From NCBI RefSeq assembly GCF_009931435.1, contig NZ_CP043414.1: a DNA stretch of 64,000 bases; one strand, written 5' to 3'. Positions 3,723 to 57,576 of the stretch are shown here, one piece after another (position 1 is the first letter of the stretch; each line of letters begins with the position of its first letter). Below the pieces are notes generated by a model. The model was not told the origin of the DNA. It was given only the letters and a program-made list of their open reading frames with translations, and did no database searches. The position numbers and the translations under genes are program-made. This stretch comes from Escherichia coli. GTDB taxonomy: Bacteria > Pseudomonadota > Gammaproteobacteria > Enterobacterales > Enterobacteriaceae.

Positions 3723-4788
3723 TACAGCACTCCTTTCGATGAGGGCAGGGTGTCGCCTTCCACGCGGATGGCCTGGCGCAGGGTGCGACCAAAGGCTTTA
3801 AAGAGACTCTCAACACGGTGGTGATCGTTTTTACCTTTGGTTTTCAGGTGTAGCGTCACGCCCATGGTGTATGAGAGCGAACGGAAGAAGTGCTCGATCA
3901 TTTCGGTGCTGAGATCGCCCACGCGCTGGTAGGTAAACTCGGCTTTATATTCCAGGTGCGGGCGACCAGAGATATCCAGCGCGCAGCGGGCAAGGCATTC
4001 GTCCATCGGCAGTACAAAACCAAAGCGGCAAATACCGCGTTTGTCGCCAAGAGCAATTTTTAATGCTTCGCCCAGCGCCAGGCCGGTATCTTCGACGGTG
4101 TGGTGATCGTCGATATAGAGGTCGCCTTTGACATTGATTTCCATGCGGAAACCGCCGTGGGTGGCGATCTGATCCAGCATGTGATCAAAGAAGCCAACGC
4201 CGGTGTTAATCTTGCTGCCACCTTCGCGATCCAGCCACACCTGGGCGTCAATCTGCGTCTCTTTGGTGTTGCGCACTACATGGGCGTAACGGTCTCGTTT
4301 AGTGAGTTGCTCGCCAATCATTGGCCAGTTCAGGGTTTCGCGGTCGTAGCGTAAACCATTAATGCCCATGTTTTCCGCCAGTTGAATGTCGGTCGCGCGA
4401 TCGCCAATTACATAACTGTTGGCACGATCCATCGCTTGCTCAGCCAGATAACCCTCCACCAGTTTTACTTTCGGCTTACGGCAGTCGCACTCATCGGCGG
4501 GCAGGTGCGGACAAATCAGCACTTCATCAAACTGCACGCCTTGCGAGGTGAAGATCTGCATCATCAGGTTGTGCGGGCCATCAAAATCCGCTTGCGGGAA
4601 ACTTTGTGTTCCCAGACCATCCTGATTAGTGATCATCACCAGCTTGTAGCCCGCTTTTTGCAGCTTCAGCAATTCCGGGATCACGCCCGGTTCAAAGGCG
4701 AGTTTGTCAAAGCGGTCCACCTGAAAATCACTCGGCGGTTCGCTAATCAGGGTTCCATCGCGATCGATAAAAAGATACTTCTGACTCA

Positions 4789-4789
<1 letters not shown>
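3722..4789 (-). CDS. hisB: Bifunctional histidinol-phosphatase / imidazoleglycerol-phosphate dehydratase
   Basis: 355 aa from [14 protein letters not shown] start; operon order. Confidence 0.95.
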
Positions 4790-7160
<2,371 letters not shown>

Positions 7161-7165
7161 AGCGA

Positions 7166-8065
7166 TCACTCCATCATCTTCTCAATCGGCAGGACCAGGA
7201 TTGAACTGGCACCCAGCGCTTTCAGTTTTTCCATCGTTTCCCAGAACAGGGTTTCGCTACTCACCATGTGCATCGCTACGCGCTGTTGATCACCCGCCAG
7301 CGGTAGAATAGTTGGGCGTTCGGCACCTGGCAGCAGGGCGATGACTTCATCCAGGCGTTCGGTCGGTGCGTGCATCATGATGTATTTTGATTCGCGCGCC
7401 TGGATAACACCCTGAATACGGGTCAGCAGTTTGTCGATCAGTTGCTGTTTGGATTCTTCCATTTCGCCATCGCGCTGGATCAGGCAGGCTTTCGAGCGGT
7501 AGATAACTTCGACTTCGCGCAGGCCGTTAGCTTCCAGCGTGGCACCGGTGGAAACCAGATCGCAAATCGCATCCGCCAGTCCGGCACGCGGCGCAACTTC
7601 GACAGAGCCGTTCAGTAAGCAGGATTTAAAAGAGATACCTTTCTGGTCGAGATAACGCTTGAGCAGGTGAGGATAAGAGGTGGCGATACGTTTACCATTT
7701 AAGGAGAGCGGACCGTCCCAGGCTTCATCAACCGGCGTTGCCAGCGAAAGGCGGCAGCCGCCGAAATCCAGACGACGCAAGGTAAAGTAGCGCGGATCTT
7801 CACCCTGGGCGCGGCGGTTAAGCAGCTCTTCTTCCAGCACGTTTTCGCCGATAATCCCAAGGTCTACCACGCCGTCCATTACCAGACCGGGAATGTCATC
7901 GTCACGCACGCGCAGAATATCAATCGGCATGTTTTCTGCCATCGCGATCAGGCGCTGGGTGTGAAGATTGATTTTAATGCCACAGCGCGCCAGTAATTCG
8001 CGTGAGTCATCACTTAAACGGCCGGATTTCTGCATAGCTATGCGTAAACGAGTGTTGTCTGTCAT
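7166..8065 (-). CDS. hisG: ATP phosphoribosyltransferase
   Basis: 299 aa from [17 protein letters not shown] start; first structural gene of his operon. Confidence 0.95.
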
Positions 8066-16993: not shown

Positions 16994-17467
16994 ATGAACT
17001 ACGAGATTAAGCAGGAAGATAAACGTACCGTTGCAGGTTTCCATCTCGTTGGCCCGTGGGAACAGACGGTAAAGAAAGGCTTTGAGCAGTTGATGATGTG
17101 GGTAGATAGCAAAAATATTGTGCCGAAGGAGTGGGTTGCTGTCTTTTACGACAATCCAGATGAAACACCCGCCGAAAAATTACGCTGCGACATCGTCGTG
17201 ACGGTGCCGAATAACTTTACGCTCCCCGAAAACAGTGAGGGCGTCATTCTGACAGAAATTTCAGGTGGTCAGTATGCGGTTGCGGTGGCTCGTGTAGTCG
17301 GTGATGATTTTGCTAAACCCTGGTATCAGTTCTTTAATAGCCTCTTGCAGGACAGTGCTTATGAAATGTTACCAAAGCCCTGCTTCGAGGTTTATTTGAA
17401 CAATGGCGCGGAAGATGGGTACTGGGATATCGAAATGTATGTTGCGGTGCAGCCAAAACATCACTAA
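16994..17467 (+). CDS. sbmC: DNA gyrase inhibitor SbmC/GyrI
   Basis: 157 aa [25 protein letters not shown]. Confidence 0.9.
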
Positions 17468-17664: not shown

Positions 17665-18722
17665 GTGCGTGCCGATAAGTCATTAAGCCCGTTTGAAATC
17701 CGGGTATACCGCCATTACCGCATTGTGCATGGTACTCGGGTCGCGCTGGCATTCCTGCTCACTTTTCTCATTATCCGCCTGTTTACTATCCCGGAAAGCA
17801 CCTGGCCGCTGGTCACCATGGTGGTGATTATGGGGCCAATCTCGTTCTGGGGTAACGTTGTCCCTCGCGCCTTCGAACGTATTGGCGGTACGGTGTTGGG
17901 TTCGATTTTAGGTCTTATCGCTCTGCAACTGGAGTTAATTTCGTTACCGCTGATGTTAGTCTGGTGCGCGGCGGCTATGTTTCTTTGCGGTTGGCTGGCG
18001 CTGGGCAAGAAACCGTATCAAGGATTATTGATTGGGGTGACGCTGGCAATTGTTGTGGGTTCCCCGACAGGTGAAATTGATACGGCGTTATGGCGAAGCG
18101 GCGATGTGATCCTCGGCTCTTTACTGGCAATGTTGTTTACCGGTATCTGGCCACAACGGGCGTTCATCCACTGGCGCATTCAACTGGCGAAAAGTCTGAC
18201 CGAGTATAATCGGGTTTATCAATCTGCATTCTCACCGAACTTACTCGAACGCCCACGTCTGGAAAGCCATCTACAAAAACTCCTGACCGATGCCGTGAAA
18301 ATGCGTGGGCTGATTGCGCCCGCCAGCAAAGAAACTCGTATTCCAAAATCGATATATGAAGGTATCCAGACCATTAACCGCAATCTGGTTTGTATGCTGG
18401 AGTTGCAAATCAATGCATACTGGGCCACGCGCCCCAGCCATTTCGTGTTATTGAACGCGCAAAACTTCGTGATACCCAGCACATGATGCAGCAAATACTG
18501 CTGAGCCTTGTTCATGCGCTGTACGAAGGTAATCCGCAGCCGGTTTTTGCCAATACGGAAAAATTGAACGATGCTGTGGAAGAGCTGCGTCAGTTGCTGA
18601 ATAACCACCATGACCTGAAGGTTGTGGAAACACCAATCTATGGTTATGTGTGGCTGAACATGGAAACGGCACATCAGCTTGAGTTGCTATCGAGTCTGAT
18701 TTGCCGGGCCTTGCGCAAATAA
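17665..18722 (+). pseudogene. yeeA: Inner membrane protein YeeA, reading frame interrupted (apparent -1 frameshift in an A-run near 18461-18464)
   Basis: Two ORFs (17665-18486 and 18390-18722) in different frames together cover a ~352 aa protein; junction at CAAAACTT. Confidence 0.7.
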
Positions 18723-18893: not shown

Positions 18894-19223
18894 ATGGAAA
18901 CTACCAAGCCTTCATTCCAGGACGTACTGGAATTTGTTCGTCTGTTCCGTCGTAAGAACAAACTGCAACGTGAAATTCAGGACGTTGAGAAAAAGATCCG
19001 TGACAACCAGAAGCGCGTCCTGTTGCTGGACAACCTGAGCGATTACATCAAGCCCGGGATGAGCGTTGAAGCAATCCAGGGCATCATCGCCAGCATGAAA
19101 GGTGACTATGAAGATCGCGTTGACGATTACATCATCAAAAATGCCGAGCTCTCCAAAGAACGCCGCGATATCTCCAAAAAGCTGAAAGCTATGGGCGAAA
19201 TGAAAAACGGCGAAGCGAAGTAA
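18894..19223 (+). CDS. yeeX: UPF0265 protein YeeX
   Basis: 109 aa from [14 protein letters not shown] start; good spacing from upstream RBS. Confidence 0.85.
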
Positions 19224-19323: not shown

Positions 19324-19749
19324 TTAGCAACAGCCTTCTTCTGTATGCAGCAAGGCAAAAAGTTCTGTAACTCCATTGTTATTAACCGCACTGGTTACTA
19401 ACACGTTGTGCGCTCCAGCTTCCCGTAACCAACATTTCACCAAAGATATGTGTTCCATGCTGGCTAAATCTGCTTTGGTTACTACTCCAATGACCGGGTG
19501 ATTCATGGCCCGGTAGGGCGTTTTTACCTCTAATTCCTGCCTCAGCGCTGAGATTCCTGCTTGTTGCCGGAAAAGCATATAGATTTGCATAAGTATGCTC
19601 TTTCGTATAGCCAGAATGTGTCGGATTCTGGTTGAACAGATAACGTGCCCGTTGACTTCTTTCGGAAGTGAGATTGTCATATCTGACATACATGGTCGCC
19701 CCTGTTTGCCAAGTCCCCGTGTCAAAAAGTCATCTGTGTAAGATTCCAA
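19324..19749 (-). pseudogene. EutP/PduV-family GTPase C-terminal remnant (possibly yoeF-like); N-terminal P-loop half missing
   Basis: C-terminal half (VIGVVTKADLA...NVLVTSAVNNNGVTELFALL) resembles EutP/PduV; upstream part of ORF lacks P-loop. Confidence 0.4.
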
Positions 19750-19900: not shown

Positions 19901-20227
19901 ATGACTAAAAATACTCGTTTTTCCCCCGAAGTCCGTCAACGGGCAGTCCGTATGGTTCTGGAAAGTCAGAGCGAATATGACTCACAATGGGCGACAATTT
20001 GTTCCATTGCTCCAAAGATTGGCTGTACGCCGGAGACTCTGCGTGTCTGGGTTCGCCAGCATGAGCGGGATACCGGGGGCGGTGATGGAGGGCTCACCAC
20101 CGCTGAACGTCAGCGTCTGAAAGAGCTGGAACGTGAAAATCGTGAACTGCGCCGCAGTAACGATATCCTTCGCCAGGCTTCCGCTTATTTTGCGAAGGCG
20201 GAGTTCGACCGCCTCTGGAAAAAATGA
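19901..20227 (+). CDS. IS3-family transposase OrfA (HTH)
   Basis: 108 aa [21 protein letters not shown]...; A-rich slippery stretch (GGAAAAAATGA) at the orfA/orfB overlap. Confidence 0.85.
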
Positions 20228-20641
20228 TGCCACTGCTGGATAAGCTGCGTGAGCAGTACGGGGTCAGACCGGTATGCAGCGAACTGCATATTGCCCCGTC
20301 AACGTATTACCATTGTCAGCAACAGCGACATCATCCGGATAAACGCAGTGCCCGTGCGCAGCACGATGACTGGCTGAAGAAAGAGATACAGCGCGTATAC
20401 GATGAAAATCACCAGGTATACGGTGTGCGTAAAGTCTGGCGTCAGTTGTTACGGGAAGGTATCAGAGTGGCCAGATGCACTGTGGCACGTCTCATGGCGG
20501 TTATGGGACTTGCCGGTGTTCTCCGGGGTAAAAAGGTCCGTACGACCATCAGCCGGAAAGCCGTTGCCGCAGGCGACCGCGTAAACCGTCAGTTCGTGGC
20601 AGAACGACCTGACCAGCTGTGGGTGGCTGATTTTACTTACG
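20224..20641 (+). CDS. IS3-family transposase OrfB, 5' exon (upstream of intron)
   Basis: Reading frame matches IS3-family OrfB up to ...[10 protein letters not shown], then diverges at intron 5' end. Confidence 0.8.
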
Positions 20642-21297
20642 GTGTGCCCGGAGTTCAGGGCGGGCATGGATGCTTAAATGAACCGCGAGTCTGTCTGGAA
20701 TATTGAACCGGTAACTCACGATGAGAAACCCAACAATCCCACCGGGTGTGACGGTGGAGAACCTGAGCGGCAGTGACCTGCGGCATGCCCGCAGGGTGAT
20801 GTAACCCGCTGACAACGGGGATTGAGGCGAGATCACTAAGCCGAGATGATCCTCAAGGTTAAGTACTGAAAGGCTGAAGAACATGAACCCGTTAATCCGC
20901 CTCTGTGGGTTGAAAACGTCACCACGGCCTACGTGATCTGACAGGCCGTGCAGGAGGAACTGGCAGTGATACGTAAGCACTGCCGGTCGAAGGTGTTTTG
21001 ACATGTATGCGAAACACCGGGGCAGCAGCGTCTATCACGCTTGCGTTGCTGACTTCTGCCAACTTGCGGCAAGCAAGGATAAAGAGTGCGACGGGCAGCC
21101 TCCTCAGTATGCCTGAGTCCAGGCAGGTAAACCGGGGAAGGTCAGCGACGGATGTTAAGGGGGCATGGCTCCGATGACGCGCTGGCTGGCGGAGCTTCCG
21201 TAGTAGTCCGCGATGGGGAAAGCCCATTACATGGCGAAGGGAAGCAGTTTGAATGTGTTTGCGACGTGAATTAACTGACCTAACGAGGTGAAGACCT

Positions 21298-22821
21298 TTG
21301 ATAATCAGCGAAATGCAACGCAAGCTTGCCACATGGGCAGTCACCGATCCGTCCCTACGGATTCAACGGCTGCTGCGTCTGATAACACAACCAGAATGGC
21401 TGGCTGAAGCGGCGCGGATCACGCTTTCATCAAAGGGGGCCCATACCCCCGGCGTTGATGGCGTGAACAAAACAATGCTACAGGCCAGACTGGCTGTTGA
21501 GCTGCAAATCCTCAGGGATGAATTACTCTCAGGCCACTACCAGCCCTTGCCCGCCAGACGGGTTTACATCCCTAAAAGCAACGACAAACTGCGACCACTG
21601 GGTATCCCCGCGTTGCGGGATCGTATTGTTCAGCGGGCCATGCTGATGGCGATGGAGCCGATATGGGAGAGTGATTTTCATACGCTCTCATATGGCTTCC
21701 GGCCTGAGCGCAGTGTCCACCACGCTATCCGCACGGTGAAATTACAGCTCACAGACTGTGGTGAAACCCGGGGACGCTGGGTGATTGAAGGCGACCTGTC
21801 CAGTTACTTCGACACCGTACATCATCGACTGCTGATGAAGGCTGTACGCCGCAGGATCAGTGACGCACGTTTCATGACTCTGCTGTGGAAAACCATCAAG
21901 GCGGGACATATCGATGTCGGTCTCTTTCGGGCGGCCAGTGAAGGTGTGCCACAGGGCGGTGTTATATCGCCGCTATTATCGAACATCATGCTGAATGAGT
22001 TCGATCAATACCTGCATGAGCGCTACCTGAGCGGGAAAGCCAGAAAAGATCGGTGGTACTGGAATAACAGTATCCAACGGGGCCGAAGTACGGCGGTCAG
22101 AGAAAACTGGCAGTGGAAACCCGCGGTGGCGTACTGCCGCTATGCCGATGATTTTGTCCTCATCGTCAAAGGCACCAAAGCACAGGCGGAAGCCATCAGG
22201 GAGGAGTGTCGGGGTGTGCTCGAAGGCAGTCTGAAACTCAGGCTGAACATGGATAAGACTAAAATCACCCATGTTAATGACGGCTTTATCTTTCTGGGGC
22301 ACAGGATCATTCGCAAACGCAGTCGTTATGGCGAGATGCGAGTGGTCTCAACGATCCCGCAGGAGAAAGCCAGAAACTTCGCCGCATCGCTGACAGCACT
22401 GTTATCAGGCAACTACAGTGAAAGCAAAGTCGATATGGCTGAACAACTCAACCGAAAACTGAAAGGCTGGGCCATGTTCTATCAGTTCGTTGATTTTAAG
22501 GCCAAAGTCTTCAGTTATATCGACCGTGTCGTGTTCTGGAAGCTGGCTCACTGGCTGGCCCGCAAATACCGTACAGGTATCGCTTCCCTGATGAGGTGGT
22601 GGTGTAAATCACCGAAACCGGGTCAGAGCAAAACGTGGGTTTTATTTGGTAAAACCAATCACGGCAAGCTCAGCGGCGAAATACTGTACCGGTTGGTGGG
22701 GCAAGGCAAGAAGCTGTTCCGCTGGCGGCTACCCGAAGGTAATCCCTATCTGAGGACGGAGACCAGAAACACGTATACATCGCGCTTTACAGAAGTGGCA
22801 ATGGCGTTCGCCAGCATTTAA
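21298..22821 (+). CDS. Group II intron-encoded reverse transcriptase/maturase
   Basis: 507 aa; RT motifs (…RRVYIPK…LRPLGIP…, YADDFVL) followed by maturase X-like domain; located inside the intron. Confidence 0.85.
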   Translation: MIISEMQRKLATWAVTDPSLRIQRLLRLITQPEWLAEAARITLSSKGAHTPGVDGVNKTMLQARLAVELQILRDELLSGHYQPLPARRVYIPKSNDKLRPLGIPALRDRIVQRAMLMAMEPIWESDFHTLSYGFRPERSVHHAIRTVKLQLTDCGETRGRWVIEGDLSSYFDTVHHRLLMKAVRRRISDARFMTLLWKTIKAGHIDVGLFRAASEGVPQGGVISPLLSNIMLNEFDQYLHERYLSGKARKDRWYWNNSIQRGRSTAVRENWQWKPAVAYCRYADDFVLIVKGTKAQAEAIREECRGVLEGSLKLRLNMDKTKITHVNDGFIFLGHRIIRKRSRYGEMRVVSTIPQEKARNFAASLTALLSGNYSESKVDMAEQLNRKLKGWAMFYQFVDFKAKVFSYIDRVVFWKLAHWLARKYRTGIASLMRWWCKSPKPGQSKTWVLFGKTNHGKLSGEILYRLVGQGKKLFRWRLPEGNPYLRTETRNTYTSRFTEVAMAFASI

Positions 22822-22826
22822 ATGGA

Positions 22827-22860
22827 GAGCCGGATGCGCTGAAAGGTGCACGTCCGGTTC
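22827..22860 (+). ncRNA. Group II intron domain V (catalytic hairpin)
   Basis: GAGCCGGATGCGCTGAAAGGTGCACGTCCGGTTC: 34-nt hairpin with AGC triad and GAAA tetraloop, followed by domain VI with bulged A about 7 nt from the 3' splice site. Confidence 0.7.
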
Positions 22861-22883
22861 GGGGAGGAGAGGCAGGGAAATAG

Positions 22884-23384
<501 letters not shown>

Positions 23385-23542
23385 GTTCACAGATAAAACA
23401 CTCTCCAGGAAACCCGGGGCGGTTCACCATGTCAGATACAGGTTCACTTAGTCGCGGTCTTATCAGTCTGGCCTTTAATACTTGTTTATCCTTAGCAATC
23501 AGTAGGTTGGTTTTATTTTTCAACAGACAGAAGTAGTTTCAT

Positions 23543-36126: not shown

Positions 36127-37315
36127 CGGAAAGGTGGCGGGGGATTCACGGAGATAATATCTGTCTGAAATTGTTTTTAATCGATGGGATTGTTGCGTAT
36201 TAACATGAAGGAGATCAGGACTTATCCGTTACTGGGTGATCTCCTTCCATGAAAATACGCCGTTATTGTTAAACAGCAGGCTGATTTCTCCGTAAAGGGG
36301 AAAATATTTATCGGCTGCATGATTATCAGGTGTGTCTGTGTTTACTGCTGTGAGTATTTTTCAGTGTATTGTGGGGGAGATGTCAGTGGGAGATATTAAA
36401 TTTACATTTATAATTATCTTACTTCTTCTGTGTGTTTTTTATAAGAGTGCACACGTAATGATATCTGTTGATACCATGTGGTTAAGTGTTTCCCTTCCTG
36501 GTCATGCGTAATGATTAAATGCTTTTGTGACACCATTCTTCCGGTCTGAATATTTATCCCGTTCTTTTTTATTTGTGCAGTGATACTGTCGGAAGAGAAT
36601 TCAGTAATGTGAGGTGTCCTGGTCAGGATAATATCTGCTGAGATATTATTAGTTGAGTGTGTTTTTACTGAGCAAAAGCTGGCTTTTAATTCCTGTACTG
36701 AAACGCTGTTGCTCGTCCGGGGTTAACTGAAACTGGATGATGATGTAAAATGAAGGCTGTTTTTGTGTTTGTCGAAGAAGTGTTATTTTAATCCATTCTC
36801 ATCATTGGCTGGCGATTATACAGAAGTATTTGAAGAAAAAATGGTGCATTTTATCTGCGTCAGCAGGGAGGAAGTATTTTATTGATGTATCAGTATTAAA
36901 TGGTTTTTGTTATTTAGAAATATGTCATCCTGTCCATAGAATATTGTACTCAGCATTCAGTGCAGGAACTGTAGTCTTCTTTATTTTATTCTTCTTCAGG
37001 AGGGGGGATTCCTGAAGGCGTTATTCCCGGTGTTCTGTTTATGATTCATCCCGGCAGGAAACCGGTATCTGCAATACCCGGGATGATGCTTTTTGTTCGT
37101 ACGTGGTTGTGTAAAATTTGAATAGTGGATGTGCTCTGAAGGGAAGGAGGGGACACACAGATTCATTTTGTCTTTCTTCAGCAGCAAAACACACTGTGGT
37201 TATTATTTAACCATTAAATCAACAAAAATTTTTACCTCATATTGATTTGACTGCTATTTTTGCTATTAATAGCCAGAATTGCAGTACTTTTATATCTGTG
37301 TGTAGTGAGGTTACT

Positions 37316-54876: not shown

Positions 54877-55313
54877 GGTAATGACTCCAACTTACTGATA
54901 GTGTTTTATGTTCAGATAATGCCCGATGACTTTGTCATGCAGCTCCACCGATTTTGAGAACGACAGTAACTTCCGTCCCAGCCTTGCCAGATGTTGTCTC
55001 AGATTCAGATTATGTCGCTCAATGCGCTGAGTGTAACGCTTGCTGATAACGTGCAGCTTTCCCTTCAGGCGTGATTCATACAGCGGCCAGCCATCCGTCA
55101 TCCATACCACGACCTCAAAGGCCGACAGCAGGCTCAGAAGACGCTCCAGTGTGGCCAGAGTGCGTTCACCGAAAACGTGCGCCACAACTGTCCTCCGTAT
55201 CCTGTCATACGCGTAAAACAGCCAGCGCTGACGTGATTTAGCACCGACGTAGCCCCACTGTTCGTCCATTTCAGCGCAGACAATCACATCACTGCCCGGT
55301 TGTATGCGCGAGG

Positions 55314-57576
<2,263 letters not shown>

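Follow-up and report, generated by a model that had tools for sequence, protein, structure and literature searches.

YeeA is a FUSC-family inner-membrane protein of 352 aa in reference strains of Escherichia coli. We searched the literature and found no established YeeA function or phenotype; yeeA appears there as a map or locus marker. Here we describe a yeeA allele in the window, by which we mean the whole stretch of E. coli DNA that was analysed (64,000 nucleotides). The yeeA genes of other E. coli strains (FUSC family protein, e.g. WP_001200892.1) share locus, synteny and Pfam domains with the window gene; the reference reading frame reaches codon 352, whereas that of the window stops at codon 273. 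The yeeA alleles of strains 504239 and IBS28 are identical in nucleotide sequence to the window gene except for an A that is missing from the latter.

Slipped-strand frameshift pseudogenes at homopolymers are common in E. coli and Shigella lineages. Like window yeeA, such genes have lost a single base in a mononucleotide run, meet a stop a few codons later, keep an undecayed downstream sequence and are restricted to a clone; nothing notable differs in the window, where the run is short (5 bases) and the gene is one of no established function. Genes that use programmed -1 frameshifting or transcriptional slippage, such as dnaX and IS3-family transposases, resemble window yeeA in having an A-rich run at the junction of two frames, but window yeeA is without their slippery heptamer, stimulatory structure and conserved split. 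Known phase-variable tracts are far longer than 5 bases. Two further natural alleles, referred to here as P0003 and P0153, have a disrupted yeeA as in the window and occur on many contigs each; they differ from the window allele in mutational mechanism and in lineage, and they are more widespread (134-315 contigs vs about 25). Placed among these systems, the window gene is probably an unremarkable pseudogene, frameshifted by strand slippage in one E. coli clone; events of this kind are already known.

Anatomy and conservation of the split yeeA

The window carries the gene block sbcB / dacD-sbmC-yeeA-tmaR (yeeX), of which the following features bear on the break.

16994-17467, + strand: sbmC (gyrase inhibitor), intact upstream neighbour of 157 aa; an open reading frame annotated in strains 504239 (L001) and IBS28 (L012), used as a synteny marker
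17665-18486, + strand: truncated yeeA reading frame with GTG start, 266 native and 7 out-of-frame codons (NFVIPST) and TGA; 273 aa
18461-18464, + strand: A4 run, site of the 1-bp deletion; a gap relative to L001 and IBS28, and A5 in every intact yeeA examined
18463-18486, + strand: codons 267-273, read out of frame, and the premature TGA at 18484-18486, from sequence and translation
18465-18722, + strand: stranded C-terminal coding sequence in a different frame, native residues 268-352 and native stop; its translation equals the C-terminus of intact YeeA
18483-18722, + strand: 79-aa reading frame from native Met274, a possible re-initiation product, whose ATG overlaps the premature stop (ATGA)
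18894-19223, + strand: tmaR (yeeX, DUF496), intact downstream neighbour, beginning 171 nt past the native yeeA stop

The gene is split at 18461-18464, which reads cAAAAc here as opposed to cAAAAAc in intact genes (junction sequence gcgCAAAACttcg). When the 3.5 kb from dacD to tmaR were compared with the same interval of strain 504239, whose intact annotated yeeA (1059 nt, 352 aa) contains LLNAQKLRDTQHMMQQ, we observed 0 mismatches and 1 gap, located in the A-run; the missing A belongs to the A5 run at nt 797-801 of yeeA. In-silico insertion of one A produced a 1059-nt reading frame of 352 codons plus stop. The 273-aa product ends with HFVLLNAQ followed by the out-of-frame NFVIPST, and the second-frame reading frame to 18722 encodes KLRDTQHMMQQ through to a terminal ICRALRK. 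Because both frames jointly reproduce the known protein at 100% identity, the split pattern is not due to chance. As is typical of a frameshift pseudogene, the reading frame is continuous in intact orthologues and one indel accounts for the break.

These comparisons bear out an earlier note on this DNA, which had proposed that the loss of one base in a short poly-A run, somewhere within 18455-18470, splits a YeeA of about 352 aa. Its residue counts need some adjustment: the 273-aa reading frame stands, though as 266 native plus 7 out-of-frame residues, and the part in the other frame comprises 85 native residues (268-352) rather than about 80.

Assignment of the gene to yeeA and the FUSC family is supported by Pfam score, by dacD-sbmC-yeeA-tmaR synteny and by near-identity to annotated yeeA. 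The truncated product scores 53.2 bits against FUSC_2 (PF13515, residues 33-158) and 51.5 bits against FUSC (PF04632), above both gathering cut-offs (25.6 and 30.9 bits, respectively), and the intact allele scores 52.4 and 57.5 bits against the same two models. The 79-aa C-terminal reading frame had no Pfam match. Similarity to YccS/YhfK and AaeB was found in NCBIfam below threshold only, and a PDB sequence search returned no significant match, its best hits at E about 1 including a weak membrane-region match to plant ALMT9. We do not claim structural homology from these hits. An AlphaFold2 model built on a 25-sequence alignment reached a mean pLDDT of 46.7 and a pTM of 0.36, a quality too poor for a fold search, and its secondary structure alone was used.

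We found the segment beyond the break to be conserved. The orthologues sampled, which cover at least a dozen enterobacterial genera (including Salmonella, Klebsiella, Enterobacter, Citrobacter, Raoultella, Yokenella, Lelliottia, Pluralibacter and Pseudocitrobacter), are nearly all exactly 352 aa at 100% query coverage. In the 25-sequence YeeA alignment, which spans many enterobacterial genera, column identity is 89% over the C-terminal 86 residues, where 48% of columns are invariant, and the corresponding values for the first 266 residues are 91% and 56%; hardly any variation occurs in the last ~20 residues. Because the orthologues are 352 aa long and have a conserved C-terminus, there is no naturally shorter YeeA among them.

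Genuine deletion or homopolymer error

To place the A4 run among complete genomes we used a 66-base query centred on it, which matched in 5332 of 5426 complete RefSeq E. coli genomes. The A4 version itself, at 100% identity to the 66-mer, was found in 0 of the 5332, and among the matches listed (30 rows) every matched stretch exceeds the query by one base. Public assemblies do already contain the A4 allele: a look-up of the 273-aa product gave exact matches on about 25 contigs, from which ten carrier loci (L002-L011) were retrieved.

Three clean carriers among these have sbcB (475 aa), dacD (388 aa), sbmC (157 aa) and tmaR (109 aa) all intact. One of them (L008, SRR11949430) matches the window at 100% identity across 7580 bp and may come from the same isolate, in which case it would not be independent. 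Another (L003, ERR13361303, together with 3 similar places) aligns across 11625 bp without a gap, all ten of its mismatches to the window lying in a multicopy IS3/group II intron segment, and the third (L004, SRR5787673) differs from the window by ten SNPs and 0 gaps. Of the 52 homopolymers (5 bases or longer) in the span shared with L003, the yeeA A-run alone differs from the intact haplotype. The lesion is thus reproduced in independent sequence data on clean contigs (L003, L004, L008). Since independent random errors would not repeatedly strike one run and spare the others, coincident error is implausible.

We weighed the possibility that the strain truly carries A5 and an intact yeeA, and that the window consensus dropped one A during sequencing or assembly. 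The site is a homopolymer, -1 products at each other 5-base run of yeeA are also present in the public collection, and a polished long-read assembly is compatible with one homopolymer indel per 62 kb. About half of the carriers retrieved (L002, L006, L007, L010, L011) are moreover noisy, with a broken sbcB or dacD among their neighbours; they show the same miscall alongside many other broken genes, which indicates that the yeeA A-run has also been struck by sequencing error in other data sets. Against this, clean contigs of runs from different archives (prefixes ERR and SRR) have exactly this deletion on exactly this haplotype, these contigs show no other indel among 42-52 long homopolymers, and the window is without any other homopolymer indel relative to IBS28. 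An error in the window is on balance unlikely, and comparison of the sequences makes it very probable that the A5 to A4 change is a genuine mutation in one E. coli clone. The earlier note had left the choice between an inactivating mutation and a homopolymer error undecided; the former is favoured, since runs that were sequenced independently and show no other indels share both the deletion and its haplotype. It had also named a naturally shorter reference protein as grounds for dismissal, and comparison with reference yeeA yielded none, orthologues being 352 aa and A4 occurring in none of the complete E. coli genomes matched.

The comparison with IBS28, the closest single-piece complete genome (L012/L013), revealed about 120 SNPs and four indels in about 62 kb. 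Apart from the one in yeeA, two of these lie outside annotated IBS28 genes and one is at an alignment-block edge by an IS1 boundary. So low an indel count does not fit an error-prone assembly, and it too speaks for a genuine mutation.

The only other internal indels relative to IBS28 in the approximately 62 kb are at window positions 37006 and 39054. The pair consists of one base before a C-run (a non-homopolymer change) and one extra TGCC unit (TGCCTGCC vs TGCC). Both fall in a CP4-44-like island with Ag43, YfjI-family and GTPase genes, and coordinate mapping places them outside IBS28 genes.

The deletion would have arisen by slipped-strand mispairing at the A5 run during replication, with loss of 1 bp, as the type of lesion suggests. 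The clone that carries it is close to strains 504239, IBS28, 67-1 and TW11681.

The A-run compared with other sites of yeeA loss

Given that the A4 allele is found on no fewer than four clean, distinct haplotypes (that of the window, L003 and L008, and those of L004, L005 and L009, which differ from the window over 3.5 kb by 6, 52 and 47 SNPs, respectively), we considered whether the A-run acts as a hotspot or contingency switch, with yeeA convergently inactivated because its loss is advantageous in some niches. The occurrence in other lineages of an IS21-family insertion (P0003) or another frameshift (P0153) in yeeA is in keeping with such an account. As a control, we derived the protein that a +1 or -1 indel would give at each of the four 5-base runs in yeeA, and searched the public protein collection for exact matches. 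The -1 products were found on 14 contigs for the A5 at nt 611, 25 for the A5 at nt 797 (the window site), 29 for the T5 at nt 881 and 9 for the A5 at nt 896; the corresponding +1 products were found on 2, 5, 0 and 1 contigs, and the intact YeeA product on at least 1000.

These counts indicate that the yeeA A5 site is like any other 5-base run, with slippage deletions and miscalls at a low level that is not peculiar to it. The A-run is not enriched over the other three runs, its 5 bases are far below the length of known phase-variable tracts, intact YeeA predominates in the collection as A5 does in complete genomes, and the yeeA coding sequence is highly conserved across genera. An adaptive or switchable loss is highly unlikely on this evidence. 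Hotspot behaviour or phase variation as the main reading was ruled out by the frameshift-product control at the other homopolymers; of the marks of a phase-variable contingency locus, yeeA shows neither a long tract, nor both lengths at high frequency, nor an enriched site. The control also carries a caution, namely that each 5-base homopolymer shows a low frameshift background in large collections, partly from noisy assemblies.

Frameshifted YeeA products of this kind (among them the entries P0165, P0166, P0135 and P0167) correspond to both +1 and -1 indels at three of the four runs and to -1 alone at the T5 run, on 1-29 contigs each, and many of the contigs that carry them are noisy.

The two other natural alleles were inspected in turn. 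In the P0003 lineage (134 contigs listed, 298 blocks indexed), an IS21-family element encoding transposition proteins of 513 aa and 248 aa interrupts yeeA after codon 275 (L014-L016, positions 4001-7650), and the insertion site lies just 9 codons downstream of where the frame shifts in window yeeA. P0153 is a different frameshift allele that starts near codon 184 and is found on 315 contigs. Because these other natural null alleles exist, yeeA inactivation is not unusual in E. coli, despite conservation of the gene across genera.

Consequences of the frameshift and neighbouring observations

The deletion is predicted to shift the yeeA frame after Gln266 and to end translation at a stop 7 codons on. 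The product would retain the N-terminal FUSC membrane domain and lose the conserved C-terminal 86 residues, a segment for which the low-confidence model, read for secondary structure only, predicts three helices (265-287, 298-313 and 333-351). Because the lost C-terminal segment is conserved, we infer loss of YeeA function, and window yeeA is most likely a loss-of-function pseudogene.

One may ask whether the split gene could still work, either as 273-aa and 79-aa polypeptides made by termination-reinitiation or as a full-length protein restored by -1 slippage on CAAAAC. The stop and start overlap as ATGA at 18483-18486, the 79-aa reading frame is called by gene callers in seven of the carrier loci (L002-L006, L008, L009), and the stranded C-terminal sequence is undecayed, with 0 mismatches to the intact allele. 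The last of these is simply explained by a recent mutation, however, and we detected no Shine-Dalgarno motif upstream of the ATG of the 79-aa reading frame, whose product would in any case miss residues 267-273. With regard to slippage, the X XXY YYZ heptamer is absent, the site offering G CAA AAC with four A's only, and there is no significant downstream RNA structure: the 18466-18545 segment folds at -22.3 kcal/mol (z -1.04), a stability reached by 30 of 200 shuffled sequences. None of the 5332 genomes shares the arrangement, and because it is absent from them no selection for it is possible. It is extremely unlikely that the split gene is functional. We likewise consider it very unlikely that yeeA has been convergently inactivated in several lineages through a niche advantage of loss, or that the membrane domain and a re-initiated 79-aa chain form a working protein in two pieces.

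Programmed frameshifting and transcriptional slippage were rejected as candidates, there being no heptamer or long A/T run (about 7 or more), no structure and no conserved two-frame arrangement.

The frameshift may also reach beyond yeeA. Because 236 nt of yeeA would now be untranslated, Rho-dependent polarity on tmaR, 171 nt downstream, is possible; a simple scan of the yeeA-tmaR interval revealed no terminator-like or promoter-like site.

For the window, the locus should be annotated as one frameshifted yeeA pseudogene and not as two genes, and the finding has little import beyond annotation. At 18483-18486 the premature TGA overlaps a native-frame ATG, and the 79-aa reading frame gets called as a separate gene by automatic gene callers; this overlap carries the risk of a spurious 'hypothetical protein' annotation. 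The A4 allele is usable as a clone marker, and strains with the A4 or the IS21-disrupted yeeA are potential natural knock-outs should a phenotype be sought.

Several neighbouring features of the window were recorded. Beside tmaR, at 19324-19749 on the - strand, is a short EutP/PduV-family reading frame that lies away from any eut or pdu operon and is annotated in related genomes as a 121-aa microcompartment-system protein. In the 19901-23400 interval, a group II intron with ltrA (about 21313-22821) divides the remnant of an IS629-like transposase of the IS3 family, a reading taken from the annotation of the matching regions of 504239 and IBS28; this is the multicopy segment to which all mismatches between the window and L003 are confined. 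Further along, yeeO (a MATE transporter gene) is interrupted by IS1, with insA/insB reading frames at 54892-55604 and an affected region of 54892-57462. An IS21-family element adjoins this IS1, with an istA-like reading frame of 340 aa at 55661-56683 and an istB-like one of 260 aa at 56680-57462. In IBS28, yeeO carries IS1 only, and the window carries about 1.95 kb extra.
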